From: a virus
Direction: 5' to 3' (one strand)
Virus record (IMG/VR): IMGVR_UViG_3300047481_001036
Length of the DNA stretch: 64,000 nucleotides
The notes under the pieces are model-generated. The model was not told where the DNA came from. It did not search any database and worked only from the letters and a program-made list of their open reading frames with translations. Positions 13,501 through 63,329 of the stretch are shown in pieces. The position numbers were made by a program, and so were the translations under genes. Positions within the stretch are counted from its first letter, which is position 1. Each line of letters opens with the position of its first letter.

Positions 13501-14114
13501 TTCGATTCTGTTTGACGATCTACAATTATCCATTGTTTGCCATCACTAGCAATCTTTATATATTCATTAAGCGTCAAATTTGCTACAACACTATTATTAG
13601 AATCTCTAACTAATAGATGATGATTTCCCGATCCTATAACTTTACATTCTACTACAATATTAGATGCTATAGAAGCAGAAGGTAATGACAGATTAATGTC
13701 TTGATTGGTGCAGTCTGCTAGGTAGAGGGCTTTAACTGAGTTAGCTTTATAATCTTTATCTAATACAACGGTATTATGTATAGAGGCGTCAAAAATTTGT
13801 TGATTAGCAAATAAGTAAAACTCATTTTTGTCTGATGTATTATCAAAATTAATAGGACTATTATTATTGGAGCTATAAACTATATTTAATCTAGAGACAA
13901 CTATGTCTCCTTCATTATTTAATTTGACTTCCCCAACTCCGGTCTCTATTTGTTGATTTTGAACATTACGGGCTAAATAAGGGATATAATATCCAATATG
14001 ATTATGAGATAAATAATTAAATCCGCTAATAATAGCGTGTTTAGTAAAACTATTATTTTTAGTTATAAATGTAAAACCAATATTATCAAATATTTTTGTA
14101 ATTTTATTAGACAT
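10545..14114 (-). CDS. Tail/receptor-binding protein with circularly permuted FGE-sulfatase (SUMF1/CLec-fold) domain
   Basis: YGTYDQNGNASEW...GGS...GFRIAS followed by YRIGRNEITNNQY...KPVLFV...WLPNLNEWHKAAYY. Confidence 0.75.
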   Translation of the reverse strand: MSNKITKIFDNIGFTFITKNNSFTKHAIISGFNYLSHNHIGYYIPYLARNVQNQQIETGVGEVKLNNEGDIVVSRLNIVYSSNNNSPINFDNTSDKNEFYLFANQQIFDASIHNTVVLDKDYKANSVKALYLADCTNQDINLSLPSASIASNIVVECKVIGSGNHHLLVRDSNNSVVANLTLNEYIKIASDGKQWIIVDRQTESNIVVGTQSLFDGSETVLQTMSSPQGDDQSLQYKSGNDLLGSEAYWDSLNSQMLIGSDSIADANVILPSSGNTVFNNSKSNGDFIVYGSGNRNLFFAYDGRLGINIPSGARPSTIFHVVNNICQEGFRLENRNSCHPANMTLYHKPSTTILPNSVVGQINLAAKDGNNNKIDYVSLEARAVDLNNPKGAFDINIRSNNTGINILAADPSSVKVGYSGINLSINSNTNVVQLKNASNSINLGTSSTTINSNTISLQGSNISIGSGQSNTNIPGSLIANSISSSNIQSTTMVVPNIAPSSILVVDSDNQIVGSNTLSANSLGTISLPIPANRFLTTTTNGAITGIYNLDDYFLTEEDIIWNKYNPRSASVCLRQITFDNPVSSTEFVVGDQVVITSYDGNFYRRIVGIDSSSDQITGLLLDQIVTQTTVAEVTVLSITQAGFLSISKKVDNGIISDASENILSIRPLTNTVFNTRRKDIDFTIYGIDPQPALNIKANIGRLSFQSGEYAPFATTESDVFPIIINSSGIGLSNTFSSANFNYNYNNTNLFSGIVSDVGSNGRPSYYGTYDQNGNASEWVDKPSVIESRDIEEFVCGGSYLTPLATGGSAPIGPSGLKHIESLVRGSGYNYVGFRIASLFNITDSANIISTTGLGLSFVSVADPQNRSDDSTTYLKVNNSYSPVIINDLGVVPNTYRIGRNEITNNQYCIFLNAVAKINDRGLYDSRMGSDSQGGILRITDDNNEYVYTTKPNMSNKPVLFVNYISCIRFINWLHNGANLNLLEDNIDYNLDIGAYNVLYIGDLSYNVVKSSYRKYWLPNLNEWHKAAYYSPVDTLSTRGTSAVTVKRNEPFLVASGTENTTKQPASLFANLSVSGWLYVDHIIVGDGTIRSPRKFTNITAPTEEDTSGQVAPNGTLVVPRTNLQPQWDNPNAIVYEDHVSCVSDGCSFNAKPLRLDSDVAALCTDQDLIDSNNTPWWCDNPNNGPTWFN

Positions 14115-50813: not shown

Positions 50814-51047
50814 ATGGCTAATTATAAGAAATGGACCGATGTGGAACTATCATATATTCAGGATAATCACTCGTTATTGTGTGATGAGAGTCTAGCCGCT
50901 TCGCTAAGCAAAATTACTGGTAGTCCTGTTAGTACCGCTATGGTAAGACGTCAAAGACGCAAACTGTCGCTAAAAAAGAGCAGAGGTCGCCCTAAGAAGA
51001 CTCCTAATGTTCAATCACCAGTACAGTCTAGTGAAGCTGTTTCTTGA
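50814..51047 (+). CDS. Small DNA-binding protein (Myb/HTH-like with RGRP AT-hook)
   Basis: KKWTDVELSYI...AMVRRQRRKL...RGRPKK. Confidence 0.65.
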   Translation: MANYKKWTDVELSYIQDNHSLLCDESLAASLSKITGSPVSTAMVRRQRRKLSLKKSRGRPKKTPNVQSPVQSSEAVS

Positions 51048-51109: not shown

Positions 51110-51141
51110 GTATTTAAATGGCCAACCCCAGGAAATATCCC

Positions 51142-52090
51142 ATGAAAGTTTTAATTTCAGGAGCGAGTGGATTCTTAGGTAGTAGAGTAGTTGACCAATT
51201 AAAAAAAGATAATCATAAGATCAAAACCTTTAGGTCAGTAGAGACTGATTTGATTAAATATGACCAAACTATAGCTTTGGTAGCTTCTTATAAACCTGAT
51301 GTTGTGATACATTGTGCTGCAAAGGTGGGAGGAATAGGGGCGAATATGGCCAATCCTGCCGACTTTATATATAGTAATTTGACGATGGGATGTAATCTTA
51401 TTCAGGCTAGCAGTGTTGTGGGGGGTGGATAAATTTGTAATGGTGGGTACGGTATGTTCTTATCCTAAATTTTGTAGTGTGCCTTTTAATGAAGAAGATT
51501 TATGGAATGGTTTTCCAGAAGAAACTAATGCTCCTTATGGAATAGCTAAAAAAACATTGGGGGTTATGTTAAAAGCATATTATAATCAGTATAATTTAAA
51601 AAGTATAATACTAATGCCTTGTAATTTATACGGGCCTGGCGATAATTTTGATGATAAGTCTAGTCATGTTATTCCAGCGTTAATTAAAAAGTTTGTTCAT
51701 GCTAAGCAAAACAATTTAAAGTCTGTGCATTGTTGGGGCGATGGTAGTGCTACTAGAGAGTTCTTGTATGTAAATGATGCTGCACGAGCTATAGCTATGT
51801 CTATAAACAACTGTGGTGATGCAGAGATCGTTAACCTGGGGTCTTCTGGGGAAATTAGCATACGGGAATTAGCCGAAATGATTAAGTCTATAGTTGGATT
51901 TGGTGGTGAAATAATTTGGGATAAATCTATGCCTAATGGTCAGCCTAGGAGATTGTTGGATACTACCAAAGCCAAAAAAATATTGGGATGGGAACCTAAA
52001 GTAGAGTTTACGACGGGACTGACCGATACTATAAACTGGTGGATCAATCAACAATCAAAGGAAGAAAAATATGAAAACAATAATGAATAG
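51142..52090 (+). pseudogene. fcl: GDP-L-fucose synthase split by a 1-nt frameshift in a G6 run (51420-51425)
   Basis: MKVLISGASGFLG...AAKVGGIGAN in one frame; GTVCSYPK...PEETNAPYGIAKK...NLYGPGDNF...SHVIPALI...WGDGSATREFLYV in the next frame. Confidence 0.85.
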
Positions 52091-52484: not shown

Positions 52485-53750
52485 ATGAAAAAGCATGGAT
52501 TGTGTGTAGAATCGTTAGAGACTAGATCTTTATTAACTCCTATTGTGGCTATTATTGACAGTGGCATAGATCTTAATCATCAAGCACTACAGCAATATAT
52601 TTGGAATAATCCTAATGAATTAGCAAATAATAATATTGATGATGATAATAATGGTTATATAGATGATATTCATGGATGGAATTTTGCCAATAATACTAAT
52701 ATTGTGCAGGATGGGTACGGTCATGGTACTCATGTGGCCGGAATAGTGGCAAGTTATGGTCCAGTCTCTTTGATGGCTTTAAAATTTCAAGATGATAGTG
52801 GATTAGGATTTACAGGGGCTGCTATCTCTGCTATAAATTATGTTATAATGATGAAAAAAACATTTGGATTAGATATAGTAGCTATCAATGCTAGTTGGGG
52901 AGGAACTACGGGAACTTCATTTATGTTAGAAAGAGCTATTCAACTAGCTAATGATGCTAATATAGTATTTGTATCCGCTGCTGGCAATAATGCTTCTGAT
53001 AATGATCTAACTCCAAGATATCCTAGCGGTTATGATGTGCCTAATATTATAGCAGTTGCTGCTGTAGGATATGACAATCAGACTTTGGCGGGATTTTCTA
53101 ATTATGGGAAAAATAGTGTAGATTTGGGGGCTAAAGGAACTGCTATATATTCTACATTACCAGGTAACCAGTATGGATACTTGAGTGGTACGAGTATGGC
53201 AGCTCCTCAAGTTGCTGGTGCGGTAGCGGCCATATGTAATAAGTATGGAAATTTGAGTGTAGCAGAAATAAAAGAAAGAATCTTTTCTACTGTTACGAAA
53301 AGTATATACCTAACTGATAAAGTGTATACTGGTGGATCGCTTAATATTACAGGAGCTTTATCTTCAAATGTTACTGTTGTAGTAAATCCTCCAACTCTTC
53401 CTAGTCCTCCTGCTCCTCCGATTGTGGTGAAGAGCTGGGATGAAAGGATTGTGGGGCGAACGGATATATTCAATATTAATAGAGTTAGAGGATGGGCGGT
53501 TGATACTGATCATGTTAATGACAGAGTAAGAGTTAAAGTAGTTATAAATAATCGTAGCGTTGTGGTTGTCGATGCTAATCAGTATCGTAGTAACCTAGTT
53601 AACTACGGAGATAGGCGTCATGGGTTCGATATTCGATTAAGTCGTAAAATGTTTAATCGAGGATGGAATGAAGTAAAGATATTTGCGGAAAATAAAGATA
53701 CTGGTGAACTAAAAATGATAGCTACCAAAAGAATCAGAAGAATAATATAA
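52485..53750 (+). CDS. S8 subtilisin-like serine protease with planctomycete-type ExLExRxLL N-terminal motif
   Basis: IIDSG, HGTHVAG and GTSMAAPQV catalytic triad; LCVESLETRSLL; Pro linker and C-terminal beta domain. Confidence 0.92.
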   Translation: MKKHGLCVESLETRSLLTPIVAIIDSGIDLNHQALQQYIWNNPNELANNNIDDDNNGYIDDIHGWNFANNTNIVQDGYGHGTHVAGIVASYGPVSLMALKFQDDSGLGFTGAAISAINYVIMMKKTFGLDIVAINASWGGTTGTSFMLERAIQLANDANIVFVSAAGNNASDNDLTPRYPSGYDVPNIIAVAAVGYDNQTLAGFSNYGKNSVDLGAKGTAIYSTLPGNQYGYLSGTSMAAPQVAGAVAAICNKYGNLSVAEIKERIFSTVTKSIYLTDKVYTGGSLNITGALSSNVTVVVNPPTLPSPPAPPIVVKSWDERIVGRTDIFNINRVRGWAVDTDHVNDRVRVKVVINNRSVVVVDANQYRSNLVNYGDRRHGFDIRLSRKMFNRGWNEVKIFAENKDTGELKMIATKRIRRII

Positions 53751-53856
53751 TGGCTAATAAACTGGCCAATTTATATAGGGGTCGCTTACTATGTTTATAC
53801 CACCGGGAGGTTTTTCGACATTTCAGCCCAGTATCACGTAAAATGAAAAAACCCCC

Positions 53857-53933
53857 TAAGATGTTGTGGCATAAGTACTTAGGTGCTATTGTATCGCGAA
53901 ACTTGACGTAAGTACTTGTGAGATAATGACTTA
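53857..53933. repeat. Double-palindrome element R1
   Basis: TAAG ATG TT GTGGCAT AA GTA CTTA -27 bp- TAAG TAC TT GTGAGAT AA TGA CTTA. Confidence 0.9.
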
Positions 53934-53940
53934 GAATAAA

Positions 53941-53955
53941 TGGCACGATATTTGC
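53941..53955 (+). promoter_or_regulatory. Sigma54 (-24/-12) consensus match
   Basis: TGGCACG-ATAT-TTGC. Confidence 0.5.
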
Positions 53956-53992
53956 TGTCAGAAAAAATTCTCAAAAAAATTTTTCTAAGGTA

Positions 53993-54021
53993 TTGACACG
54001 GGTTTGGCCGATATGTATAAT
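53993..54021 (+). promoter_or_regulatory. Consensus sigma70 early promoter with CCGATA box
   Basis: TTGACA-17-TATAAT. Confidence 0.9.
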
Positions 54022-54040
54022 ATGCTCAACACAAGAGGAG

Positions 54041-54274
54041 ATGACGAAAATGATTGCGCTGAACACTGTGGCTGAGTTGACCGGGTTTCTGAACAACAAC
54101 TCTACTCTTTCGACCCTTGTGGGCGAAGTGGTTTTCTCTGGTGATCTGCTCGACCATGTTCGGGCTAACGGTAACGTGATCAACATCGACGAGGAGATCG
54201 GTTTCTGTGATGATGGTGGAGAAATCGTTATCGACGATAACGGGAATGTTGTTAGCGATATGTATATTCCGTAA
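54041..54274 (+). CDS. Acidic hypothetical early protein
   Basis: GAGGAG RBS downstream of promoter; track start 53993 is the -35 box. Confidence 0.75.
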   Translation: MTKMIALNTVAELTGFLNNNSTLSTLVGEVVFSGDLLDHVRANGNVINIDEEIGFCDDGGEIVIDDNGNVVSDMYIP

Positions 54275-54330
54275 GGTATTGACAACCTAAAAATTAGTTG
54301 CTAAAATAGGCTCAACACGAAAGGACGAAT

Positions 54331-54480
54331 ATGGACAGCGTAATTACCGTAATTTTTTCTTCTGATTGTTGTGGGGCTCATATGACTTTTGCACAGGCAG
54401 ATTATGAGATTTGCCCATCTTGCCTAGATCATTGCGAAGTAATTGGTGAAGAGGTTATCGAAGATCGAGGAGAATATTGA
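54331..54480 (+). CDS. Small Zn-ribbon-like protein (49 aa)
   Basis: SDCCGA...ICPSCLDHC; own promoter TTGACA-17-TAAAAT (54279-54307); AAGGA RBS. Confidence 0.75.
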   Translation: MDSVITVIFSSDCCGAHMTFAQADYEICPSCLDHCEVIGEEVIEDRGEY

Positions 54481-54483
54481 TCG

Positions 54484-54561
54484 TAAACCCTTGCTACTAA
54501 AGCACTTAGAGAAAGGTATTGCGGCAAAACTTGACGTAAGTACTTAGCCCGTAATGACTTA
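54484..54561. repeat. Double-palindrome element R2
   Basis: TAAA CCC TT GCTACTA AA GCA CTTA -28- TAAG TAC TT AGCCCGT AA TGA CTTA; 3 bp after a stop. Confidence 0.9.
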
Positions 54562-54625
54562 GGTATACTAAAAATTTTTTATAGATTTGGCATGAAATTA
54601 TTTTTATTTTTCTAAAAGTTTTCTC

Positions 54626-54654
54626 TTGCATTTGGTCGATAATATTGGTAGAAT
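54626..54654 (+). promoter_or_regulatory. Sigma70 promoter with TCGATAAT box
   Basis: TTGCAT-17-TAGAAT. Confidence 0.75.
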
Positions 54655-54682
54655 CAAGTATCAAAGAAAGAGAGTGATAGAG

Positions 54683-54907
54683 ATGGAAAAGAGTATGAGT
54701 GTGAATGGTTTCCTTGCTACGCTTCCTAAGATTGTGCAAAAGAAAGTGTGGAAGGTTACGGATTCCACTGGTACGGTTGTACAGTATGTAGGCTCTACCG
54801 ATAATCGGAAAAGTACTGCTCAGGTGTACATCAACAGCAAGTATCCCGGTCAAAACTTGACCCTTACGTTTTCTCACTTCAACGGAATGATTGCTATCCC
54901 CCGATAA
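54683..54907 (+). CDS. Hypothetical early protein
   Basis: Start MEKSMS after purine-rich leader. Confidence 0.7.
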   Translation: MEKSMSVNGFLATLPKIVQKKVWKVTDSTGTVVQYVGSTDNRKSTAQVYINSKYPGQNLTLTFSHFNGMIAIPR

Positions 54908-54967
54908 GAGGGGTTGACGGGCGGGAAAAGTTTGGTATAATACTGGAAAGAGAAAGAGAGAAAGATT

Positions 54968-55180
54968 ATGAGCAAGAATGAAGTGATGATGATTGTGGAA
55001 AAGATTTTCGGTGATGATGCTAACCGTGTTCGCGTCAACATGAGCGGTGATTGCTACCGTATCGAATGGGAAGATGGTTGCCATTCGGTTAGGGTTAACG
55101 AAAAGAATGCGTTTGACAAGATTAACGATCTCTACTATGATGTTGCTTGTGAGAATGCTTCCGAGTTTGGTTGGTCTTGA
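54968..55180 (+). CDS. Hypothetical early protein
   Basis: Own promoter TTGACG-16-TATAAT (54914-54941). Confidence 0.75.
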   Translation: MSKNEVMMIVEKIFGDDANRVRVNMSGDCYRIEWEDGCHSVRVNEKNAFDKINDLYYDVACENASEFGWS

Positions 55181-55195
55181 ATAAAGGGTAAGAAA

Positions 55196-55306
55196 ATGAT
55201 TTTCAGTGATTATGTTCTCTTGACCGGTTTGCTTGCTGCCTGTGCATTTGTTTCGTATCTTGTGCATGAAATCGGCAACGCTATCAATTCTTATCTGAAC
55301 AGCTAA
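55196..55306 (+). CDS. 36-aa membrane peptide (paralog of 58923-59033)
   Basis: MIFSDYVLLTGLLAACAFVSYLVHEIGNAINSYLNS. Confidence 0.75.
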   Translation: MIFSDYVLLTGLLAACAFVSYLVHEIGNAINSYLNS

Positions 55307-55317
55307 AGGCTATAATC

Positions 55318-55488
55318 ATGGTTTTCTATATGTATCGTGCTGTTGACGCTAAACGCTTAGGTACAGTATATGCTATTGATTGGGTGGAAGCCCGCACACT
55401 AGCTACCCAAAAGTGGGGGTATAAGTTTGGCGAAGTGTTCGCATGTACAGCCCCATTGCCAGAGGAAGGCGGATTAGTGGTTTGGTGA
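55318..55488 (+). CDS. 56-aa protein of the GxV...EA...A...[YW]G family
   Basis: MVFYMYRAVDAKRLGTVYAIDWVEARTLATQKWGY... Confidence 0.7.
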   Translation: MVFYMYRAVDAKRLGTVYAIDWVEARTLATQKWGYKFGEVFACTAPLPEEGGLVVW

Positions 55489-55491
55489 ACG

Positions 55492-55568
55492 TAAACCCTT
55501 ACTGCATAAGGACTTAGGGCAAATCGCGGGGCCGAATTCGACGTAAGTGGTTGGCATATATAGACTTA
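55492..55568. repeat. Double-palindrome element R3
   Basis: TAAA CCC TT ACTGCAT AA GGA CTTA -27- TAAG TGG TT GGCATAT AT AGA CTTA. Confidence 0.9.
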
Positions 55569-55633
55569 CGACAACTCTATTTTTCTTCTCATTTGGCACA
55601 CGATTATTTTTCGGTTTTTTTCAAGAAAGCCTA

Positions 55634-55661
55634 TTGACTTGGCCGATAATCTCTGTATAAT
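55634..55661 (+). promoter_or_regulatory. Sigma70 promoter with CCGATAAT box
   Basis: TTGACT-16-TATAAT. Confidence 0.8.
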
Positions 55662-55694
55662 AATGGCATAAGAAAGAAAGCAAAGGATAAGAAA

Positions 55695-55844
55695 ATGAAG
55701 AATTGGATTTGCTATAACCTTTTTGGTGAAAAGGCTGATGATGTTGGCACTTTCGGAATGATTAGCGGATGTGCAATTATAGCCTTTCTTCTTTCGTCTG
55801 TTTTCTACTTTTTTGTTTATATTCCTCTTGTTTATTTTGGGTGA
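55695..55844 (+). CDS. 49-aa membrane protein
   Basis: MKNWICYNLFGEKADDVGTFGMISGCAIIAFLLSSVFYFFVYIPLVYFG. Confidence 0.65.
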   Translation: MKNWICYNLFGEKADDVGTFGMISGCAIIAFLLSSVFYFFVYIPLVYFG

Positions 55845-55847
55845 AAT

Positions 55848-56036
55848 ATGAATAGCCTTGATAAGATTCTTTCTGCTATGCGTACCGGTAAGTATGGTAG
55901 CGTTATTGACCCAAAGGGTAATGTGCATGTTGGCCTAATCAACTGCATCATGCGTGAGGATGGTAGTGGGAAGAACTGGATCGTTACGGTGACCAACCGT
56001 ACAGTAAGCGAACGGGTGTTCATTCACGCCAAATAA
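55848..56036 (+). CDS. Hypothetical early protein
   Basis: 62 aa, IMREDGSGKNWIV motif. Confidence 0.75.
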   Translation: MNSLDKILSAMRTGKYGSVIDPKGNVHVGLINCIMREDGSGKNWIVTVTNRTVSERVFIHAK

Positions 56037-56043
56037 TCGAACA

Positions 56044-56121
56044 TAAGTCCTTGCTGCTAAAGGACTTAGAGCAAGGCGGTGCGGCCAGTTTTGACGTAAG
56101 TACTTATGCAGTAAGAGTTTA
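56044..56121. repeat. Double-palindrome element R4
   Basis: TAAG TCC TT GCTGCTA AA GGA CTTA -28- TAAG TAC TT ATGCAGT AA GAG TTTA. Confidence 0.9.
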
Positions 56122-56191
56122 CGCTCTGTATTTTTTCTAAACTAATGATTGGGGATTGGCCGATAATCTATATATAGAAAGAGAGGCCAAA

Positions 56192-56368
56192 ATGTACGAT
56201 GTGGTTTTTTTGATTACCTTCATGGGATTCGGTATAGGATTTGAGGGGTGCGATGAGGGAAAGATGTATTTTGGGACGTATACGCCAAATAGGGAATATG
56301 GTTGGGTTGTAACGGATAAGGAAGTTTATTTGGATACGATTCTAGAAAAAACAAATGTTCAGTATTGA
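56192..56368 (+). CDS. Hypothetical early protein
   Basis: GAGG RBS, start MYDVVF. Confidence 0.65.
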   Translation: MYDVVFLITFMGFGIGFEGCDEGKMYFGTYTPNREYGWVVTDKEVYLDTILEKTNVQY

Positions 56369-56421
56369 CGCTTAAAGATTTTTCTGTATAATGCCGATAT
56401 AAGAAAGTAAGGAGAAAGAAA

Positions 56422-56571
56422 ATGCAGTTTGCTCTTGGCGATAAGGTGAAGGTTGATGGGAAGTTTGGCCGAATCATTCTCTGGCATTTTGATGAAGGGA
56501 ATGTTTGGCATGTTGAGATTGACGGGGAAGAGTATGAGTGCTATGATGAGGACATGGAATTGATCTCCTGA
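56422..56571 (+). CDS. 49-aa SH3/KOW-like protein
   Basis: MQFALGDKVKVDGKFGRII...YDEDMELIS; AAGGAG RBS; promoter at 56365-56392. Confidence 0.7.
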   Translation: MQFALGDKVKVDGKFGRIILWHFDEGNVWHVEIDGEEYECYDEDMELIS

Positions 56572-56588
56572 AAATAAGGAAAATAAAA

Positions 56589-56741
56589 ATGGAAAAGATG
56601 ATCGACGAAAACGGAGAAGAGTGGATGATGGGCTTTTTTGAAGATGAGGGTTGGGATCCGATTATGGGAGATGCGGAAGACTGGGTGGAAACGGATGATG
56701 AGTGGCTGGACGATTTCCAGGGTGAAGAAGACTTTGCCTAA
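56589..56741 (+). CDS. 50-aa highly acidic Trp-rich peptide
   Basis: MEKMIDENGEEWMMGFFEDEGWDPIMGDAEDWVETDDEWLDDFQGEEDFA; its stop is the TAA of R5. Confidence 0.7.
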   Translation: MEKMIDENGEEWMMGFFEDEGWDPIMGDAEDWVETDDEWLDDFQGEEDFA

Positions 56742-56816
56742 AGCGTTGCGGAGTAAAGACTTACGTCGCGGCGGGCCGCGAAAATTTGACGTAAGTACTT
56801 GTGGAGACTAGGTTTA
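56739..56816. repeat. Double-palindrome element R5
   Basis: TAAA GCG TT GCGGAGT AA AGA CTTA -28- TAAG TAC TT GTGGAGA CT AGG TTTA. Confidence 0.9.
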
Positions 56817-56875
56817 CGACACATTTCTCATCATACTAGATGTCCTATCAGAAGCCTCAAAAAAAAGACTCTCTC

Positions 56876-56900
56876 TAAACCTATATCTCATAAGGACTTA
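56876..56900. repeat. Solo third palindrome arm after R5
   Basis: TAAA CCT AT ATCTCAT AA GGA CTTA. Confidence 0.7.
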
Positions 56901-56988
56901 AGAACAATCTGGAATTTTTCTAAAGATTGCATTTGACTTTTGACGATAATTTATCGTATAATCTAGCATAAGAAAGAGAGAGTGAAAG

Positions 56989-57183
56989 ATGGAAAAGTTG
57001 ACTGTGACCGAAGAAATTGTCGTGTCTGCCCTGTTGAAAACCAGTGAGGACAACATGAGTTCCCTGATCGAAAGCGGTGTGAGTGAATCTCTTACCAAAA
57101 TGCTGATCGAGGATTTGCAGGCTCTTCGCGTAATCCGTCGCAAACTGGGTTTGGATTGCTATACCCCTCACGATAGGGGTTGA
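56989..57183 (+). CDS. Hypothetical early protein
   Basis: Promoter TTGACT-18-TATAAT (56933-56962). Confidence 0.7.
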   Translation: MEKLTVTEEIVVSALLKTSEDNMSSLIESGVSESLTKMLIEDLQALRVIRRKLGLDCYTPHDRG

Positions 57184-57233
57184 CACCAATAGAAAGTTTT
57201 TGCTAGAATACGACCAACACGAAAGGAACAGTT

Positions 57234-57575
57234 ATGAAGCAGAAGTTTGAGATCATCGAAAATGCTAAGCGTCAAGCCCGTATGTGCTTTCTGGGGATTG
57301 CCATTCCTCACCAACCCTCTCTTGCCGAAGGGGTTTACGGCCCTATTCGCTCGGAAAAGGTTCTGAAGTTCAATCGAAAGGCACTTCGCAATTTGGGCAA
57401 AGTACAGAAAGAAAAGACGAATCCCCGTCTTATTGGGGGTGAGGATACCATGATCGTGAAGGCTGGAAAGCCGGGTTCATGGGAAAGGGTTGAAGCACTG
57501 GCTCACCAATATGGTGCGATTTTGGCGTGTGGTGAGGAAGTTTCTCCATTCGCATTCAAAGCAAGTGATGAATGA
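57234..57575 (+). CDS. Hypothetical early protein
   Basis: Promoter at 57180-57209; AAGGA RBS; KPGSxERV motif. Confidence 0.75.
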   Translation: MKQKFEIIENAKRQARMCFLGIAIPHQPSLAEGVYGPIRSEKVLKFNRKALRNLGKVQKEKTNPRLIGGEDTMIVKAGKPGSWERVEALAHQYGAILACGEEVSPFAFKASDE

Positions 57576-57603
57576 TTGTTCACTACTGAACAAAAGCTTG
57601 ACG

Positions 57604-57680
57604 TAAATCCTTACTATCACAGGACTTGCGTCAAGTTGCTGGGCCCGACTAGCTCTAAGTACTTATCCTACAACAACTTA
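57604..57680. repeat. Double-palindrome element R6
   Basis: TAAA TCC TT ACTATCA CA GGA CTTG -27- TAAG TAC TT ATCCTAC AA CAA CTTA. Confidence 0.85.
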
Positions 57681-57691
57681 GATACATAATT

Positions 57692-57706
57692 GCAAATCAT
57701 ATGCCA
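57692..57706 (-). promoter_or_regulatory. Sigma54 (-24/-12) consensus match, reverse orientation
   Basis: Minus strand TGGCATA-TGAT-TTGC. Confidence 0.4.
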
Positions 57707-57832
57707 AACTATAAAATTTCTAAGATTTTTCTGTCAAAATTTCTTGACAATATTTTTTCGATTTTTCTCTTGAAAATTCAAGATTGAGACGATATAATGT
57801 CGATATAAGAAGTAAGAAAGAAAGAGGAAACG

Positions 57833-58039
57833 ATGAATAGCAAGACGATTGCAAAAGAGTTGCAGAAACTGGGTTACACGCTCAAGCGGACTTCTGACGT
57901 TGAAGCCCGATGGATGGTTCGCTCGGATGTGCTGACCTACCATTGGGACTTCAAGGACTTGAAGGGGGTTGAGCGATTTATGGTAGATGAGCGGGCTATG
58001 TATCGTTATGCCAAAGCCAACGGAGCAACCCTACGATAA
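57833..58039 (+). CDS. Hypothetical early protein
   Basis: GAGG RBS; promoter TTGAAA-17-TATAAT (57770-57798). Confidence 0.75.
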   Translation: MNSKTIAKELQKLGYTLKRTSDVEARWMVRSDVLTYHWDFKDLKGVERFMVDERAMYRYAKANGATLR

Positions 58040-58095
58040 AGGGGTTGACACAAAAACACTTTTTGATAAGATACAACAATAAGAAAGGGATAAAT

Positions 58096-58407
58096 ATGAC
58101 ACATGCTGAAGCAGTTTCTATGGTTCGTGGCAAGCGTAACGCAACTCGTCGCAAGGTTGGCAACAACACCTATGCGGAAATCCTGCATGACGGGAGCGTG
58201 GGTATCATGCTGCATAGTACCTATGTGGTAAAGATTCATGAGGATAATACCTACACTCTAAATAGTGGAGGCTGGCAAACTCTGACCACAAAGGATAGAA
58301 TCAACCAGTATAGCCCGCGTTATGTCTATCAAAAGAATTTCGAATGGTTTGTAAAGATCAACGACAAATCCTATCCATTTATGGATGGTATGGTGGTGGG
58401 AAACTGA
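58096..58407 (+). CDS. Conserved-looking phage hypothetical protein
   Basis: Start MTHAEA; LNSGGWxTxTTKDRIN...VYQKNFEWFV motif; promoter at 58045-58072. Confidence 0.75.
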   Translation: MTHAEAVSMVRGKRNATRRKVGNNTYAEILHDGSVGIMLHSTYVVKIHEDNTYTLNSGGWQTLTTKDRINQYSPRYVYQKNFEWFVKINDKSYPFMDGMVVGN

Positions 58408-58410
58408 TCG

Positions 58411-58488
58411 TAAAGCCTTATCCCTAAACGACTTAGGGTGAGGCCGCGCCCCCCGCAGCGTCGTAAGTGCTTATGCAGCAACACTTTA
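58411..58488. repeat. Double-palindrome element R7
   Basis: TAAA GCC TT ATCCCTA AA CGA CTTA -28- TAAG TGC TT ATGCAGC AA CAC TTTA. Confidence 0.9.
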
Positions 58489-58582
58489 TGACGAGAAAAA
58501 TATTTTTGGATTTTTTTTAAGAATACCCTATTGACAGGACGATAATCTATGGTAGATTAGCAGTATCCAAGGAGAAAAGAGA

Positions 58583-58870
58583 ATGAATGCCACGAAGCGA
58601 AATATGGTTGAGCGGATCGCGGAGAAGGTGGGGGTGACGGGTTTGCAGGCCAGAGAAATCGTGCAGGCCACGTTGGATGATCTGGTCGCAACGCTCGCGG
58701 CGGAAGGTCGCATCGAATTGCGTAACTTTGGCGTGTTTACGGTCAAGGTGTCCGCTCCGCGTAAGGCTCGCAACCCACGAACGGGTGAGACTGTGATGAT
58801 CGGTGAGCGTAAGGTAGTAAAGTTCAAGGCCGGAAAGGCTATGGAGAATACCGTAAACCGACAAGGCTGA
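58583..58870 (+). CDS. HU/IHF family DNA-bending protein
   Basis: GRIELRNFGVFTVK...RKARNPRTGE...VKFKAGK; promoter TTGACA-16-TAGATT (58531-58558). Confidence 0.95.
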   Translation: MNATKRNMVERIAEKVGVTGLQAREIVQATLDDLVATLAAEGRIELRNFGVFTVKVSAPRKARNPRTGETVMIGERKVVKFKAGKAMENTVNRQG

Positions 58871-58922
58871 GACTTGACAAGTTAGATTTTTAGGATACAA
58901 TGCACCTTGAGAGGAGTTTGCA

Positions 58923-59033
58923 ATGAACGCTATGGATTATATTTTTCTTTTTGGTTTGCTTGCTCCGTGTGCTTTTATCAGCTATACTGTGCATGAAATT
59001 GGAAATGCTATAGCGTCCTATCTGAACGATTAA
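58923..59033 (+). CDS. 36-aa membrane peptide (paralog of 55196-55306)
   Basis: MNAMDYIFLFGLLAPCAFISYTVHEIGNAIASYLND; GAGGAG RBS. Confidence 0.75.
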   Translation: MNAMDYIFLFGLLAPCAFISYTVHEIGNAIASYLND

Positions 59034-59047
59034 AAAAGGTTAAAAAT

Positions 59048-59146
59048 ATGATAGGGGTTATACTAGTGCTATTAGGTTTGCTTGTATTGGCTACGGTTGG
59101 CGGAGTTGTTTTGGCTATCATGGATATTTCAGCCGAAAATTATTAA
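59048..59146 (+). CDS. 32-aa single-TM peptide
   Basis: MIGVILVLLGLLVLATVGGVVLAIMDISAENY; AAGGT RBS. Confidence 0.6.
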   Translation: MIGVILVLLGLLVLATVGGVVLAIMDISAENY

Positions 59147-59161
59147 TATAAAGGATCACGG

Positions 59162-59257
59162 ATGGTCGATATACAAATAGATTGGATGTGGATGGGTGTG
59201 GGATTTGTTGTTGGCATTGGTAGTGCTTGGCTTGTTTCTGACTTGGTTTTCCACTAA
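59162..59257 (+). CDS. 31-aa single-TM peptide
   Basis: MVDIQIDWMWMGVGFVVGIGSAWLVSDLVFH; AAGGA RBS. Confidence 0.6.
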   Translation: MVDIQIDWMWMGVGFVVGIGSAWLVSDLVFH

Positions 59258-59272
59258 AAAATAGAAATAAAA

Positions 59273-59344
59273 ATGAGTAAAGAAATTCTTTGGGCTGTTT
59301 CTTTTATTCTCGGTTCTGTAGTAGCTTTATTCGCTAATATCTAA
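59273..59344 (+). CDS. 23-aa single-TM peptide
   Basis: MSKEILWAVSFILGSVVALFANI; ends 8 bp before R8. Confidence 0.5.
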   Translation: MSKEILWAVSFILGSVVALFANI

Positions 59345-59352
59345 ACTAGCTC

Positions 59353-59430
59353 TAAACCCTTGTGGCGTAAAGACTTACGTCATAAAGGGCCCGCCCCGCG
59401 ATACCTAAGTCGTTGCAGCATAAAGACTTA
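59353..59430. repeat. Double-palindrome element R8
   Basis: TAAA CCC TT GTGGCGT AA AGA CTTA -28- TAAG TCG TT GCAGCAT AA AGA CTTA. Confidence 0.9.
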
Positions 59431-59448
59431 GGATCAATCTTTACACAC

Positions 59449-59463
59449 GCAAATACTGTGCCA
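59449..59463 (-). promoter_or_regulatory. Sigma54 (-24/-12) consensus match, reverse orientation
   Basis: Minus strand TGGCACA-GTAT-TTGC. Confidence 0.45.
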
Positions 59464-59548
59464 TAAAATTTTTGTTTTTCTCCAAAGTTTGAACTTGCAT
59501 TTGGTCGATAATTAGTGTAGACTCAGAGCATCAAGAGGAGGAAGAATC

Positions 59549-59707
59549 ATGCTCAACGATTTTGATGATGTGAATCGGATTCTTGCAGAGATGGCCGACG
59601 ATGGTATGATTGAGCCTATTGATGATCCCAATGTCGAAATTAACTTTTGGGATTGGGCAGATGTGGTGGGGTGTGTAGAAGATTTTGTCCCCGAGGAGGC
59701 GTTTTGA
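59549..59707 (+). CDS. 52-aa acidic protein
   Basis: MLNDFDDVNRILAEMADDGMIEPIDD...; GAGGAGG RBS; promoter at 59495-59523. Confidence 0.7.
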   Translation: MLNDFDDVNRILAEMADDGMIEPIDDPNVEINFWDWADVVGCVEDFVPEEAF

Positions 59708-59790
59708 TGTTGGATTTGCTCTTGACGGTATGCGGAGTCGTGCTATACTTCGGATTCCTTTATTTGAACCTCACTCTGGAAAGGAACTAA
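59707..59790 (+). CDS. 27-aa hydrophobic peptide
   Basis: TGATG coupling; MLDLLLTVCGVVLYFGFLYLNLTLERN. Confidence 0.5.
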   Translation: MLDLLLTVCGVVLYFGFLYLNLTLERN

Positions 59791-59791
59791 T

Positions 59792-60070
59792 ATGAGTCAC
59801 CCAGATCCCCTTTTTGATCCTGATAACTCTTATGAGGATGATATGAATTACGACTATTATAACGATTACTTTGACGAGGATAGTAGTAACTATCATCCGG
59901 ATGCGGATCATGAGATTTCTACTCATACTGATGATGATTATGAGAACGAGGAAGAAGATGTTTGGAATGATGATGTCGATGATAGTATGGATGGAGATTT
60001 CGACAGTGCCATGCGAGATGCTGGATTTGGGACAGACGAGGATTATGGCTATTATGGAGAAGATTTCTAA
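59792..60070 (+). CDS. Hyper-acidic 92-aa protein
   Basis: About 35 D/E, one Arg, no Lys; C-terminal AGFGTDEDYG. Confidence 0.8.
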   Translation: MSHPDPLFDPDNSYEDDMNYDYYNDYFDEDSSNYHPDADHEISTHTDDDYENEEEDVWNDDVDDSMDGDFDSAMRDAGFGTDEDYGYYGEDF

Positions 60071-60273
60071 TGTTGACGATAAAAGAGTTTCGACAGTTGG
60101 TAAATGCTGAACTGAATAAACAGTGTGGTCTCTCTCTTGGTGATCTGCCAGATTTTGATCTGTACAATTACTATGATCCAGAACTGAATCCGCAAGAAGC
60201 CAATGATATTGCAGTGGAAGCGGCACATGATTTGCTCTATGAGGAAGGCTTTCCTCTGGAAGAAATGGTGTGA
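60070..60273 (+). CDS. Acidic hypothetical protein
   Basis: TAATG coupling; GLSLGDLPDFD motif. Confidence 0.75.
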   Translation: MLTIKEFRQLVNAELNKQCGLSLGDLPDFDLYNYYDPELNPQEANDIAVEAAHDLLYEEGFPLEEMV

Positions 60274-60275
60274 TC

Positions 60276-60353
60276 TAAACCGTTGTGGCGTAAGCACTTA
60301 CGTCGCGGCGGGCCGCAAAAACAAGCCATAAGTCTTTATATGACAAGACTTTA
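60276..60353. repeat. Double-palindrome element R9
   Basis: TAAA CCG TT GTGGCGT AA GCA CTTA -28- TAAG TCT TT ATATGAC AA GAC TTTA. Confidence 0.9.
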
Positions 60354-60417
60354 GAGACAAAATATTTTTTCTGAAGTTTTCTCTTGACTCTGACCGATAA
60401 TAGAGTAAGATAAGCGT

Positions 60418-60576
60418 ATGATGAAAAAGCAAAAAATCAAACTGGAAGTTAAGCCAATCTGGGCAATTGGCAAGGGTCATAACGTCCACAATAGCGGCTC
60501 GGGTCAGCACGACAATAGACCCAAGAGACTCCGTACCCGTCAATCAAGGAATAATCAGGCTATAAATGACTGGTAG
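60418..60576 (+). CDS. 52-aa basic peptide
   Basis: MMKKQKIKLEVKPIWAIGKGHNVHNSGSGQHDNRPKRLRTRQSRNNQAINDW; ATG 6 nt after -10, probably leaderless. Confidence 0.65.
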   Translation: MMKKQKIKLEVKPIWAIGKGHNVHNSGSGQHDNRPKRLRTRQSRNNQAINDW

Positions 60577-60578
60577 TC

Positions 60579-60624
60579 TCTGCTAATCTTATGGAATCGG
60601 CTGGTGTGGCTGTAGTCAGCGAAA
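60579..60624 (+). repeat. Second intergenic motif, copy 1
   Basis: CTGCTAATCTTATGGAATCGGCTGGTGTGGCTGTAGTCAGCGAAA. Confidence 0.6.
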
Positions 60625-60685
60625 ATATAGCGGTCTTGACAATCAAAAATTACAGTGTAGAATCTATAAAAAGAAAGGATTGGTT

Positions 60686-60982
60686 ATGGCTGGTATGACT
60701 CTGCAAGATTGGATTAATGCTTATATTCCCAAGGAGAATGAGAAGAATATGGTGAAGGTTAATGTTACTCACACAGATACTTTTGGTGGTGAACCTAACT
60801 ATGGTTGGGTAAAGCGTCATGAGTTTACCATTCATAAACATGCTTCGCAACGTAATATCGTTCGCAAGGCTAAGGCTCTGGCTGGAATGACGGGGGTTAA
60901 GGCCGATACTTATGATTACGGAGATAGTTATACCGTAAAGCCTAGAGGCTATCATCAGGTTATTTTTGTGGATTTTGAGTGA
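60686..60982 (+). CDS. Hypothetical early protein
   Basis: TDTFGGEPNYGWVKR motif; promoter at 60636-60663. Confidence 0.75.
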   Translation: MAGMTLQDWINAYIPKENEKNMVKVNVTHTDTFGGEPNYGWVKRHEFTIHKHASQRNIVRKAKALAGMTGVKADTYDYGDSYTVKPRGYHQVIFVDFE

Positions 60983-60991
60983 ACATCACCC

Positions 60992-61068
60992 TAAACCCTT
61001 GGTGCTTCGGCACTTAGGGTGGCGGGTGCGGCCGAGCTGGTCGTAAGTTCTTATTTCTCAACACTTTA
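60992..61068. repeat. Double-palindrome element R10
   Basis: TAAA CCC TT GGTGCTT CG GCA CTTA -27- TAAG TTC TT ATTTCTC AA CAC TTTA. Confidence 0.85.
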
Positions 61069-61099
61069 TAGCTAAAATATTTTTTTTAAGTTTTTTCTC

Positions 61100-61127
61100 T
61101 TGACAAGCCGATAATATATGGTAGAAT
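61100..61127 (+). promoter_or_regulatory. Sigma70 promoter with CCGATAAT box
   Basis: TTGACA-16-TAGAAT. Confidence 0.85.
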
Positions 61128-61152
61128 CCAAAGATGAAAGAGAGAGTGAAAA

Positions 61153-61341
61153 ATGAGTAGATATTATGAGGATCGTTGGAATCCGTATAATCGTCATGAT
61201 ACGGGTATGTATGTTGTCTATCGTAAGAGTGACAATAAGCACCTAGGAACGGTAGTGGATTGTCATACTGCTAGCGAAGCCAAACGTAAGGCTTATGACG
61301 AATATGGTTGTGAGTGCTATGTAAGTGAGATTGAGGAATAG
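61153..61341 (+). CDS. 62-aa protein of the GxV...EA...A...[YW]G family
   Basis: YVVYRKSDNKHLGTVVDCHTASEAKRKAYDEYG. Confidence 0.75.
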   Translation: MSRYYEDRWNPYNRHDTGMYVVYRKSDNKHLGTVVDCHTASEAKRKAYDEYGCECYVSEIEE

Positions 61342-61346
61342 TTAGT

Positions 61347-61556
61347 ATGAAAAAGTTGAGTAATATGGATCTGGATGACTTGCAGTTCGATGCTCAGTTG
61401 ATGGGTTTTAGAGTTGTGTACCTGGAAAAGCCTCTTGACTGGAATCATTTTGTGTTGTATCATCTTATGCCACAGTTGACTTATGTTGGTCACTATAGAA
61501 CTTTGAACGATGTGCGTATGGATATGCAACAGCACTATGTACCAGCAGGAGTTTGA
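61347..61556 (+). CDS. Hypothetical early protein
   Basis: GAGG RBS, tandem in unit. Confidence 0.7.
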   Translation: MKKLSNMDLDDLQFDAQLMGFRVVYLEKPLDWNHFVLYHLMPQLTYVGHYRTLNDVRMDMQQHYVPAGV

Positions 61557-61557
61557 A

Positions 61558-61821
61558 ATGAACGGTTATGAACTGATTGCTCAACTGAATGAGATTGTGA
61601 AGGATATAGTACTGGTTCCTAATAGTTTGCTTCCTGAAAACTTTCAAGATCATAGAACTGATAGTGTGAGTTTGGCCGATCTGGAAGACAAGTGCGATAG
61701 TATGGAACGTAGTGAAACTGACCACGAAGAAGAGAAGAGGGAAAAGGCTCGTCGTGTTGAGTTGTATCGTGAGATGATGCATAATGGGCGGGAAATATCC
61801 TATCTACGGAAGGGGCTGTGA
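61558..61821 (+). CDS. Hypothetical early protein
   Basis: AGGAG RBS, start MNGYEL. Confidence 0.7.
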   Translation: MNGYELIAQLNEIVKDIVLVPNSLLPENFQDHRTDSVSLADLEDKCDSMERSETDHEEEKREKARRVELYREMMHNGREISYLRKGL

Positions 61822-62114
61822 TGAACGGTAATAATCCGTATTGGCCTTATTGGTTGAGTAATACTCTAAACTTTACCTACCATGGTAAGAATGTTTGGGG
61901 TACTATTATGAGATTTGGTAATGGCTTCGTTACCATGATTACGAAAGATGGTTATCGTAATTATTGTTGGAATAAGATGGGTCCTATTATATTGTATCAG
62001 TGTGCTGTGCAGGAGCTTATAAAAAATTACCAGTATCACAATGATCAAAATTTTAAATATTTATATGATTTTTACGGACCTTATGTGCAGCCTTATCCTT
62101 GGAAAGAGGATTAA
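61818..62114 (+). CDS. Hypothetical early protein (aromatic-rich)
   Basis: Overlapping start; ends 4 bp before R11. Confidence 0.7.
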   Translation: MMNGNNPYWPYWLSNTLNFTYHGKNVWGTIMRFGNGFVTMITKDGYRNYCWNKMGPIILYQCAVQELIKNYQYHNDQNFKYLYDFYGPYVQPYPWKED

Positions 62115-62118
62115 TCTC

Positions 62119-62196
62119 TAAAGTCTTGCAATTAAAAGACTTAGAAGCAAGCGACACCGCCGGATTTGACGTAAGTTCTTACTCCTTAATGCTTTA
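62119..62196. repeat. Double-palindrome element R11
   Basis: TAAA GTC TT GCAATTA AA AGA CTTA -28- TAAG TTC TT ACTCCTT AA TGC TTTA. Confidence 0.9.
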
Positions 62197-62280
62197 CGAT
62201 CAAAAAAATTTTTTTAAGATTTTTCGCTTGACAAGCCGATAATAGTATTGTAGGATAGAACGCAAGAAAGAGAGGACAGT

Positions 62281-62502
62281 ATGCAACACCGTTTCTTTGA
62301 TATTGTGGTCGAAACTGAAAGTGGTGAGGTTGGGGTGGATAAGGAGTTTACACTGGATATTCCTGAGCATGACACTAGTAATGCTATGGAACGTGCAGAA
62401 TATCTGGGGATTATGATGGATACGCTGGTTGCGACAAGCGGACTTGCTGTATGCTCTTTCCGCAGCGAGATTGTGGAAAATTTTGCTCAAGTTTGCTCTT
62501 GA
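62281..62502 (+). CDS. Hypothetical early protein
   Basis: Promoter TTGACA-17-TAGGAT (62228-62256); GAGGA RBS. Confidence 0.75.
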   Translation: MQHRFFDIVVETESGEVGVDKEFTLDIPEHDTSNAMERAEYLGIMMDTLVATSGLAVCSFRSEIVENFAQVCS

Positions 62503-62568
62503 CAATTGATGATAATAGTGTAGAATGTTGGAAACGTCATGGTTAGATTTCTCTAAGAAAGGTTTGAT

Positions 62569-62976
62569 ATGAACGATACGACGATTACTCTTGTTGCGGT
62601 TGGTGTTGGCGTGGTGTTTGCTGTGGGTTTCTTTCTGTTTAGTGCGATTCGTGGTGTGCATGGTTCTCTTGCTAATGCCAAGGTTGGAGATATTTTCAAC
62701 TTTGAATATGAGCAACCACATCATGGTGATCCCGAGCGTGTTCTTGCCAAGGTTATCGAGCCGGTTTATACGCTGGACGATCTCCAGATTCGCAGGCTCA
62801 ATGCTCGCAGTCGGTATCGGGCTAATGACCCTAATTTCAAACGTACTAAGCATCTGGTTACTTGCCAGACGAATGATGGTAAGATTCGCAATTTTTATGC
62901 AGAGCGTACTAAGAACGTGCGTAGGTTGCCTATCTCTCATCCCTTGTTTCGTAAGGTAGCCGCGATGGTTCTCTAA
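62569..62976 (+). CDS. Membrane-anchored protein, possibly WYL/SH3-like C-domain
   Basis: N-terminal TM; FEYEQP...ER...LVTCQTNDGKIRNFYAER. Confidence 0.7.
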   Translation: MNDTTITLVAVGVGVVFAVGFFLFSAIRGVHGSLANAKVGDIFNFEYEQPHHGDPERVLAKVIEPVYTLDDLQIRRLNARSRYRANDPNFKRTKHLVTCQTNDGKIRNFYAERTKNVRRLPISHPLFRKVAAMVL

Positions 62977-63006
62977 AAATTGAGCGTCCATAAAAACCCC
63001 TAATCC

Positions 63007-63084
63007 TAAGTTGTTGCTATGGCAGAACTTAGGACGGGGCGGCGCCGCTAAATTTTCCATAAGTGCTTATCTAATATAGGGTTA
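63007..63084. repeat. Double-palindrome element R12
   Basis: TAAG TTG TT GCTATGG CA GAA CTTA -28- TAAG TGC TT ATCTAAT AT AGG GTTA. Confidence 0.85.
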
Positions 63085-63147: not shown

Positions 63148-63291
63148 ATGCACACTTGGCGAGTTTGGCAAAATAATCGGATTGTTGGTTATATAACCGC
63201 AGTATCCGAATACGAAGCATACGCAAAAGCCACTGATAAATACGGACGGTATCTTTGGGTTGAACGAATACTAGATAACTGTCCTGCCTAA
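63148..63291 (+). CDS. 47-aa protein of the GxV...EA...A...[YW]G family
   Basis: MHTWRVWQNNRIVGYITAVSEYEAYAKATDKYGRYLWVERILDNCPA; AAGGAG RBS. Confidence 0.75.
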   Translation: MHTWRVWQNNRIVGYITAVSEYEAYAKATDKYGRYLWVERILDNCPA

Positions 63292-63329
63292 TCCTACGGA
63301 TTTGGGTTGTGTGGGTGTAGTCAGCGAAA
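63284..63329 (+). repeat. Second intergenic motif, copy 2
   Basis: CTGCCTAATCCTACGGATTTGGGTTGTGTGGGTGTAGTCAGCGAAA. Confidence 0.6.

Follow-up and report, generated by a model that had tools for sequence, protein, structure and literature searches.

The promoters lambda pL and Mu Pe, as well as sigma54 promoters, are assisted by integration host factor (IHF). Bending dimers also bind upstream of rrn and tRNA promoters (Fis) and at class I CRP sites; these sites are separated by whole helical turns and are effective on one face of the helix only. The site of Fis has a core of 15 bp that is A/T-rich at its centre, and that of CRP is 22 bp long. In temperate phages, the stoperators of mycobacteriophage L5 and the dispersed C1 operators of P1 are short asymmetric or simple single sites for a repressor. 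The bacterial interspersed mosaic elements of the RIP type (BIME/RIP) in the E. coli chromosome consist of repetitive extragenic palindromes (REP) that flank an IHF site, and it has been proposed that they organize DNA topology. We know of no promoter phasing for BIME/RIP units. T4-like phages carry promoter-early stem-loops (PeSLs), which are repeated between small early genes (PMC4122927; Arbiol 2010 cited therein). The subject of this work is a repeated double palindrome in the early region of a virus, IMG/VR record IMGVR_UViG_3300047481_001036, found in a stretch of 64,000 nucleotides of that record (the window).

The record is 83.6 kb long and is estimated to be 58% complete, and the window is its minus strand. 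Late genes occupy positions 1-50.6 kb of the window on the minus strand and include the large terminase (TerL), the portal, a likely major head protein and a tape measure protein of 5017 amino acids. Rightwards of about 50.8 kb all genes are on the plus strand, are very small and lie behind sigma70-type promoters. The double palindrome recurs in this region, where it precedes most of the strong early promoters, and it is also present in over 100 relatives. It is probably a double-stranded, protein-bound module that belongs upstream of the strong sigma70-type early promoter following each copy, and its binder is predicted to be an IHF-type protein.

An earlier note on this DNA, made from the sequence alone, had described 12 elements, each with two imperfect palindromic arms of 25 bp. 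The double 25-bp box is present at every one of the 12 starts, and the distance between arm starts, given in the note as 52-53 bp, is 52 bp in four elements and 53 bp in eight. Exact matches to the pattern TAAR-N3-TT-N7-AA-N3-YTTA number 26 in the 83.6-kb record versus 0 for the reversed control, and all 26 are confined to the early small-gene region. A paired scan of the record returned 21 elements, the 12 already reported and nine past the end of the window that span 64218 to 75330 in window-style coordinates. The note had also proposed scanning the whole phage and its relatives, and this extended the family well beyond the record. A scan of IMG/VR with a 17-base version of the pattern returned at least 119 stretches, many of them with 5-13 matches, and at least 342 non-overlapping copies were harvested from about 100 IMG/VR contigs, of which 235 copies could be oriented. 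Five complete relatives (150-233 kb) have one array each, with at least 11-14 copies in 9-20 kb and essentially none elsewhere. The phage is without cultured relatives, since its TerL is only about 25% identical to those of Bacillus and Microcystis phages and a megablast of the region against GenBank phages gave no match. No subtilase relatives were confirmed in IMG/VR.

Comparison of the copies corrects the anatomy given in the note. The arms are really about 37 bp long and read yTTGmCs-TAArnnCTT-N7-AAgnnyTTA-sGkCAAr. In logos of the 235 oriented copies the letters T-A-A, T-T, A-A and T-T-A are fixed at 1.5-2 bits and the letters between them vary freely; the variable N7 centres and the GC-rich core described earlier were borne out by the same logos. 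The arm centres are 53 bp apart, which is five helical turns, around a GC-rich linker of 16 bp between the two palindromes. The inner half-sites (TAAGTnCTT) hold about 13 bits. The element is polar with respect to the promoter, with a distal inner flank of ACTTA-GGGCAAG on the left and a proximal one of TTTGACG-TAAGT on the right. As the note had stated, 9 of the 12 elements begin within 10 bp of the preceding stop codon in the open reading frame (ORF) list of the window. The elements adjoin these stops because the flank TTGACG-TAA itself supplies TGA and TAA stop codons in a tightly packed genome.

The element is tied to the promoter that follows it by helical phasing. Copies were oriented by the presence of TTGAC on one side only, and the gap was measured between the first such -35 and the near end of the right (proximal) arm. 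These gaps have maxima at 20, 30-31, 41-42, 51-53 and 61-63 bp. With a period of 10.75 bp the Rayleigh R reaches 0.60 (p ~1e-34), and it is still 0.55 (p ~1e-24) after removal of copies that are more than 80% identical. Five narrow windows that cover about one quarter of the range contain 163 of the 218 gaps of up to 80 bp. The promoter-linked words GATAA and TAGAA share this phase whereas unrelated words have none, and the T-tracts of the spacer recur at 10-11 bp. In the record itself the gaps are 17, 19, 19, 20, 20, 30, 30, 31 (five times), 42, 42 and 59-65 bp. The phasing means that a bound protein must be placed on one particular helical face with respect to RNA polymerase and that the element belongs functionally to the downstream promoter and not to the upstream gene. 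Judged from the sequences, the element is a stereospecific upstream element of a sigma70-type early promoter. The elements of the window and one extra arm are as follows.

53857-53933, plus strand: element 1, arms at 53857-53881 and 53909-53933, 52 bp apart; -35 at 53993
54484-54561, plus strand: element 2, arms 53 bp apart; stop codon 3 bp upstream
55492-55568, plus strand: element 3, arms 52 bp apart; -35 TTGACT 65 bp past the arm
56044-56121, plus strand: element 4, left arm a perfect palindrome, TAAGTCCTT-N7-AAGGACTTA
56739-56816, plus strand: element 5, ORF 56589-56741 stops at the TAA of the left arm
56876-56900, plus strand: extra single arm, 84 bp past the right arm of element 5
57604-57680, plus strand: element 6, -35 TTGACA 63 bp past the arm
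58411-58488, plus strand: element 7, gap of 42 bp to the -35; heads the unit that begins with an HU/IHF-like gene
59353-59430, plus strand: element 8
60276-60353, plus strand: element 9, gap of 30 bp to the -35
60992-61068, plus strand: element 10, gap of 31 bp to the -35
62119-62196, plus strand: element 11, gap of 31 bp to the -35
63007-63084, plus strand: element 12, gap of 17 bp to the -35

The claim that the TAA of an arm doubles as a stop codon in element 5 is correct, as ORF 56589-56741 ends there. In the same module the extra arm at 56876 brings the -35 at about 56933 back into phase, with a gap of 32 bp. A single coding sequence overlaps an element: the ORF at 53750-53911 on the plus strand, 53 amino acids long and with homologues in three related contigs, crosses the left arm and core of element 1.

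Two classes of promoters were noticed after the elements between 53993 and 63130. Those linked to an element have UP regions made of T-tracts, and within their spacer, 9-11 bp after TTGAC, the word CGATAAT is conserved. The internal promoters (for example at 54914, 57180 and 58045) start with GGGGTTGAC, have an extended -10 (TGn) and are without an element. Two other promoter readings were rejected. A sigma70 promoter within the arm, formed by TTGACG and a -10, is rejected as the spacing yields no usable -10. An RNA polymerase of the P23-45 type, fused to the tape measure protein and with its own motifs (10.1101/2022.12.01.518664), is rejected as the promoters are plain sigma70-type; the N-terminus of the tape measure matches tape-measure families only.

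The geometry of the arms points to the kind of protein that would bind them. The canonical IHF site consists of WATCAA-N4-TTR and two AA steps nine bp apart at the points of proline intercalation (PMC1874591), and T44 of the TTR is 6 bp from the nearer kink (PMC5829579). The arms read TAA-N4-TT-N7-AA-N4-TTA, with TT/AA steps that are nine bp apart, and both halves match the IHF offsets; each arm would therefore be a symmetrized canonical IHF-type site, as for a homodimer. The frequency of T7-T8 is 0.91-0.96 and that of A16-A17 is 0.92-1.00 in both arms. The sequence (C/T)AA-N4-TTA is present on both halves, with C before AA in 63% of the right outer halves, and the WAT part is not conserved. 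Within an arm, 16 bp separate the two half-site centres, so that they lie on opposite faces; this would suit a DNA-wrapping protein better than a helix-turn-helix (HTH) dimer on straight DNA. The spacing of 53 bp and the 16-bp GC-rich linker would leave just enough room for two dimers and two in-phase sharp bends. Readings of the arm as a Fis, CRP, NtcA or MotA-box site were rejected as either the half-site spacing or the composition of the centre does not fit.

A mechanism can be proposed on this basis. The T-tract spacer would act as a curved, UP-like region whose length shifts by whole helical turns only, and these whole-turn steps would always leave both sites on one helical face as seen from RNA polymerase. 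A homodimeric protein of the IHF/HU family would make two in-phase sharp bends upstream of the promoter. These bends would wrap or curve the upstream DNA toward the polymerase and thereby set the strength or the timing of early transcription. The module may also isolate neighbouring, very active units topologically. The binder would mainly be a host protein, probably from Planctomycetota, supplemented in a few phages by a copy of their own. The earlier note had offered, as one of two options, a paired operator for one dimeric protein. This option stands in kind, given the promoter phasing and the IHF/HU-site geometry, and what we infer beyond it is the identity of the binder, the sign of its effect (activation or repression) and the host.

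The element could instead act as RNA, as a terminator, an RNase III-type processing site or a stabilizing 3' hairpin of each early unit. It abuts the stop codon of the preceding gene, its dyad sequences fold more stably than shuffles (-24.7 versus -18.2 kcal/mol), and the region is otherwise without canonical intrinsic terminators above chance (11 terminator-like sites found, 8.2 expected). However, the minimum-energy folds differ from copy to copy, the GC stretch of the core has no consistent stem and no T-run or U-tract directly after it, and an Rfam search with the element gave no match. Among 217-235 copies, Watson-Crick pairing at the variable positions, within an arm or between arms, is never above that of shuffles and is often below it. 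Fixed letters combined with variable positions that do not covary fit a protein site in double-stranded DNA, and the phasing to the downstream -35 is a property of DNA. The lack of RNA or hairpin covariation is established, as are the repeat family itself, its confinement to a single early array, the helical phasing and the IHF-like geometry. Hairpin, cruciform and RNA structure were rejected on the covariation counts, the inconsistent folds and the Rfam result, and a role as RNA is the least probable of the explanations considered.

The other option of the earlier note was a phage-borne system with attC-like sites that excises or shuffles gene cassettes. The broader form of this explanation has the elements as recombination sites that shuffle cassettes, either by site-specific recombination or by homologous exchange between copies in the manner of PeSLs, which are a precedent (PMC4122927). 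The early genes are indeed mosaic among relatives, and the best matches of neighbouring genes come from different contigs. In a comparison of relatives no two of which are very close, the ends of nucleotide homology were about 2-fold enriched within 30 bp of an element versus random positions. The note had proposed testing for breakpoints inside the element; they are not focused there (6.3% observed versus 5.1% for the null). Gene adjacency, scored where both neighbours have homologues in the same related contig, is kept equally well across elements (66 of 82) and elsewhere (65 of 83), and in about 20 relatives many elements are at conserved positions between conserved genes. The search for a recombinase that the note had proposed returned neither tyrosine recombinases (PF00589) nor serine recombinases (PF00239) in any of 11 records, namely the contig and 10 relatives with at least 90% completeness.

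The attC analogy fails on all the defining features tested. In at least 342 copies the ends are TAA(A/G)...(C/T)TTA and not the R''/R' RYYYAAC...GTTRRRY of attC, the arm spacing is fixed at 52-53 bp unlike the variable length of attC, and every module carries its own promoter unlike attC cassettes. What is conserved is sequence and not structure, with no covariation and no logic of extrahelical bases, whereas in attC a bottom-strand hairpin is maintained by compensatory changes and the site is served by the tyrosine recombinase IntI. The promoter phasing has no role in recombination. Contigs of related strains in metagenomes join or end at elements, promoters and ribosome-binding sites, which would favour recombination. 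These joints and loose ends in freshwater metagenomes were rejected as evidence, because they are explained by repeats common to co-occurring relatives. Excision and cassette shuffling are not supported, and recombination as the purpose of the elements is considered highly improbable. Occasional homologous exchange between repeated promoter modules may occur as a by-product, as has been proposed for the PeSLs of T4-like phages (PMC4122927).

Two proteins encoded by the phage are candidates for binding the element.

58583-58870, plus strand: HU/IHF-family gene inside the array, 95 amino acids, Pfam PF00216 at 1e-27, PDB matches to IHF and HU
50814-51047, plus strand: P0001, 77 amino acids, three-helix HTH/Myb-like domain with a basic RGRP AT-hook-like tail

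The HU/IHF protein has an RNPRTGE arm with the intercalating proline and is a candidate auxiliary binder of the arms. Among 24 related records searched, such a gene is found, besides its own phage, in one relative, G017, where it also lies inside the array. Most relatives are without the gene and therefore a host factor is implied if the IHF model is right. P0001 suggests a different explanation, in which the element is a paired operator for a phage regulator that shuts off or times the early promoters in the manner of a dispersed repressor system. Its orthologues head the array in six of the six genomes compared, and its structural model is a confident three-helix bundle (pLDDT, the predicted local distance difference test, above 90) with a basic tail. 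The inner half-sites are rich in information, and two promoter-phased sites on the same face would also suit a repressor that loops DNA or contacts the polymerase. On the other side, the fold search and the PDB profile search with P0001 gave nothing significant, its AT-hook match is weak, and a GcrA-like hint from the Atlas (score 0.86) is a lead only. The search of the conserved early proteins against Pfam and PHROGs found no DNA-binding family. An HTH dimer on straight DNA would not usually have half-site centres on opposite faces, the sites are 30-110 bp upstream of the -35 and not over the promoter, and enrichment of the same palindrome in Planctomycetota genomes points to a cellular factor. 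An operator for a phage regulator is considered unlikely.

The evidence for the host comes from the same two sources, the HU/IHF protein and the palindrome. The nearest cellular homologues of the phage protein are in four Planctomycetota metagenome-assembled genomes (MAGs), with 50-56% identity. The strict palindrome TAAGT-NN-TT-N7-AA-NN-ACTTA has 57 sites in 35 of 201 Planctomycetota genomes versus 8 for the reversed control, an enrichment of about 7-fold, whereas 201 Pseudomonadota genomes have 5 sites versus 4 and no enrichment. In the Planctomycetia MAG with the closest HU/IHF homologue (G026), five arm-like sites lie 0-14 bp from the ends of tRNA genes. The short direct repeats next to them differ from site to site (one set, for example, has TTAGGTAG four times), and three to four of the G026 sites are 1-3 kb from integrase genes. 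This layout looks like that of attachment (att) regions, in which IHF sites are found, with a putative shared host-factor site and element-specific arm sites. The evidence is circumstantial, and the host is probably a member of the Planctomycetota. A cyanobacterial host, as weak cyanophage-like matches had suggested, was rejected; it does not fit the sigma54-type motifs described below and the Planctomycetota evidence points elsewhere. Arm-like 25-bp palindromes at tRNA ends were recorded at loci L158, L159, L161 and L162 of G026 and also at L178 and L180. One contig of the same MAG has about 35 tRNA genes in 3.6 kb (G026:C35:20486-24108), which could be a tRNA array of phage origin or a phage contig that was binned with the MAG.

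Some elements have a sigma54-type -24/-12 motif as a companion. In the 83.6-kb record the strict form, TGGCAC-N5-TTGC, has just two occurrences, one 6 bp past element 1 and the other 18 bp past element 8. A relaxed form adds elements 2, 3 and 6, so that 5 of the 21 elements of the contig have a motif 6-26 bp after them.

53941-53955, plus strand: sigma54-like motif TGGCAC-N5-TTGC, 6 bp downstream of element 1
54588, plus strand: relaxed sigma54-like motif of element 2
55594, plus strand: relaxed sigma54-like motif of element 3
57692, minus strand: sigma54-like motif of element 6, relaxed form
59449, minus strand: strict sigma54-like motif of element 8

In the family as a whole, TGGCAY-N5-TTGC has 30 matches within the 110 bp downstream of the 235 elements and none upstream, with about 0.03 expected. 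IHF and sigma54 are classical partners, and all four candidate host genomes encode RpoN. A further explanation would have the element serve sigma54-dependent promoters, as their enhancer or IHF module, with the sigma70 promoters as a separate layer. In elements 2 and 3 the arm centres would be near -64 and -116 from the inferred sigma54 start. The IHF-sigma54 partnership fits this geometry, but the opposite strand carries 24 of the 30 motifs, at a typical distance of 10-15 bp to the arm. They point into the element, and therefore a start there would run back through the element and place it downstream of the start; the antisense orientation has no obvious explanation. The motif is found at only 13% of the elements, and no enhancer-binding ATPase (PF00158) was found in 10 near-complete phages. 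A primary role in sigma54-dependent transcription is considered very improbable. It was also observed that some element-linked -35s (for example at loci L011, L063, L066 and L118) are embedded in the palindrome TTGTCAA-N6-TTGACAA, with the antisense sigma54-like motif about 25 bp away.

Several points weigh against an IHF-type module as the explanation of the element. The HU/IHF gene is absent from all 10 near-complete relatives, and the HTH-like P0001, which heads every array, is an equally available candidate for the binder. The information content of the inner half-sites, about 13 bits, exceeds that of the usual E. coli IHF sites and could mean that a base-reading regulator is involved. Copies were harvested and oriented by pattern rules, so the fixed positions are partly pre-selected, and many copies are orthologous and therefore not independent. 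The enrichment in Planctomycetota could stem from integrated phages and not from sites of the host. The element may activate, repress or insulate.

Other features of the window were noted in passing. Two paralogous membrane mini-genes of 36 amino acids at 55208-55307 and 58935-59034 are 71% identical in DNA and belong to two different modules, and several more hydrophobic ORFs of 30-50 amino acids are clustered at 58923-59345. A second dispersed motif of 42 bp, CTAATC..TA.GGA...GTGTGG.TGTAGTCAGCGAAA, is found at 60583-60624 and 63288-63329; its two copies are 83% identical and are at gene ends. An NAD-dependent epimerase/dehydratase is split over the overlapping plus-strand ORFs 51118-51432 and 51413-52090, which correspond to the N- and C-terminal halves of PF01370, and this may reflect a frameshift, a programmed shift or a broken gene. 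The tape measure gene (14114-29167, minus strand) encodes a protein in which only residues ~50-620 match tape-measure families, and its length implies an extremely long tail.

Taken at its fullest, the proposal is that an entire clade of large freshwater siphophages, probably infecting Planctomycetota, builds all of its main early promoters on a 'double U-turn' nucleoprotein module, in which two symmetric host IHF-like sites five turns apart are phased to RNA polymerase and some copies have an antisense sigma54 promoter. In this complete form the proposal is tentative and rather doubtful. If true, this would be a promoter architecture without a described counterpart, and it would offer a first means of learning which DNA a planctomycete nucleoid protein prefers and which hosts these phages have. 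It would link phages to the Planctomycetota, a phylum with almost no known phages and almost no known promoter or nucleoid-protein specificities. It also offers a testable rule for how abundant uncultured freshwater phages of 125-230 kb drive their host-takeover genes, and a sequence signature by which early regions and the orientation of promoters can be recognized in metagenomic contigs. The tempting but wrong reading as a 'phage integron' is removed. A literature search for such a fixed phased doublet architecture found nothing, and the fixed doublet, the strict phasing over hundreds of promoters, the likely planctomycete link and the antisense sigma54 motif appear undescribed.

Upstream sites for bending proteins and promoter-linked phage repeats are already known in kind, and the element shares features with several described systems. 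Like PeSLs (PMC4122927), it is a composite motif just before near-consensus sigma70 promoters in the most plastic region of the genome. PeSLs have a terminator stem-loop as their upstream part, whereas the element has no stem covariation, and it differs further in its fixed 78-bp geometry, its helical phasing, its protein-site-like logo and in breakpoints that are only about 2-fold enriched near it and not focused inside it.

Like the L5 stoperators and the P1 C1 operators, the elements are dozens of sites for one protein in the intergenic gaps of a phage and are tied to transcription units. Unlike them, they are phased doublets upstream of promoters, and no repressor or integrase was found. 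BIME/RIP units too are composites of extragenic palindromes, contain an IHF-type site and are found where transcription units end, but here the order is reversed, with two IHF-like sites that flank a GC core, and the unit is phage-borne. As in the Fis and class I CRP systems, several sites for bending dimers are upstream of a strong promoter with an UP element. The sequence and the half-site spacing differ from those of Fis and CRP, whose sites are not fixed doublets.

With IHF-assisted promoters the element shares the 9-bp distance between AA/TT steps, the offsets of AA-N4-TTR, a site of about 35-37 bp and a position upstream of the promoter on a fixed helical face, and some copies have sigma54-type motifs. 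It differs from them in that the binder is predicted only, in that each site is fully palindromic with the consensus on both halves, and in that the site is always doubled, 53 bp apart around a GC-rich linker, and repeated 11-21 times per genome with a higher information content.

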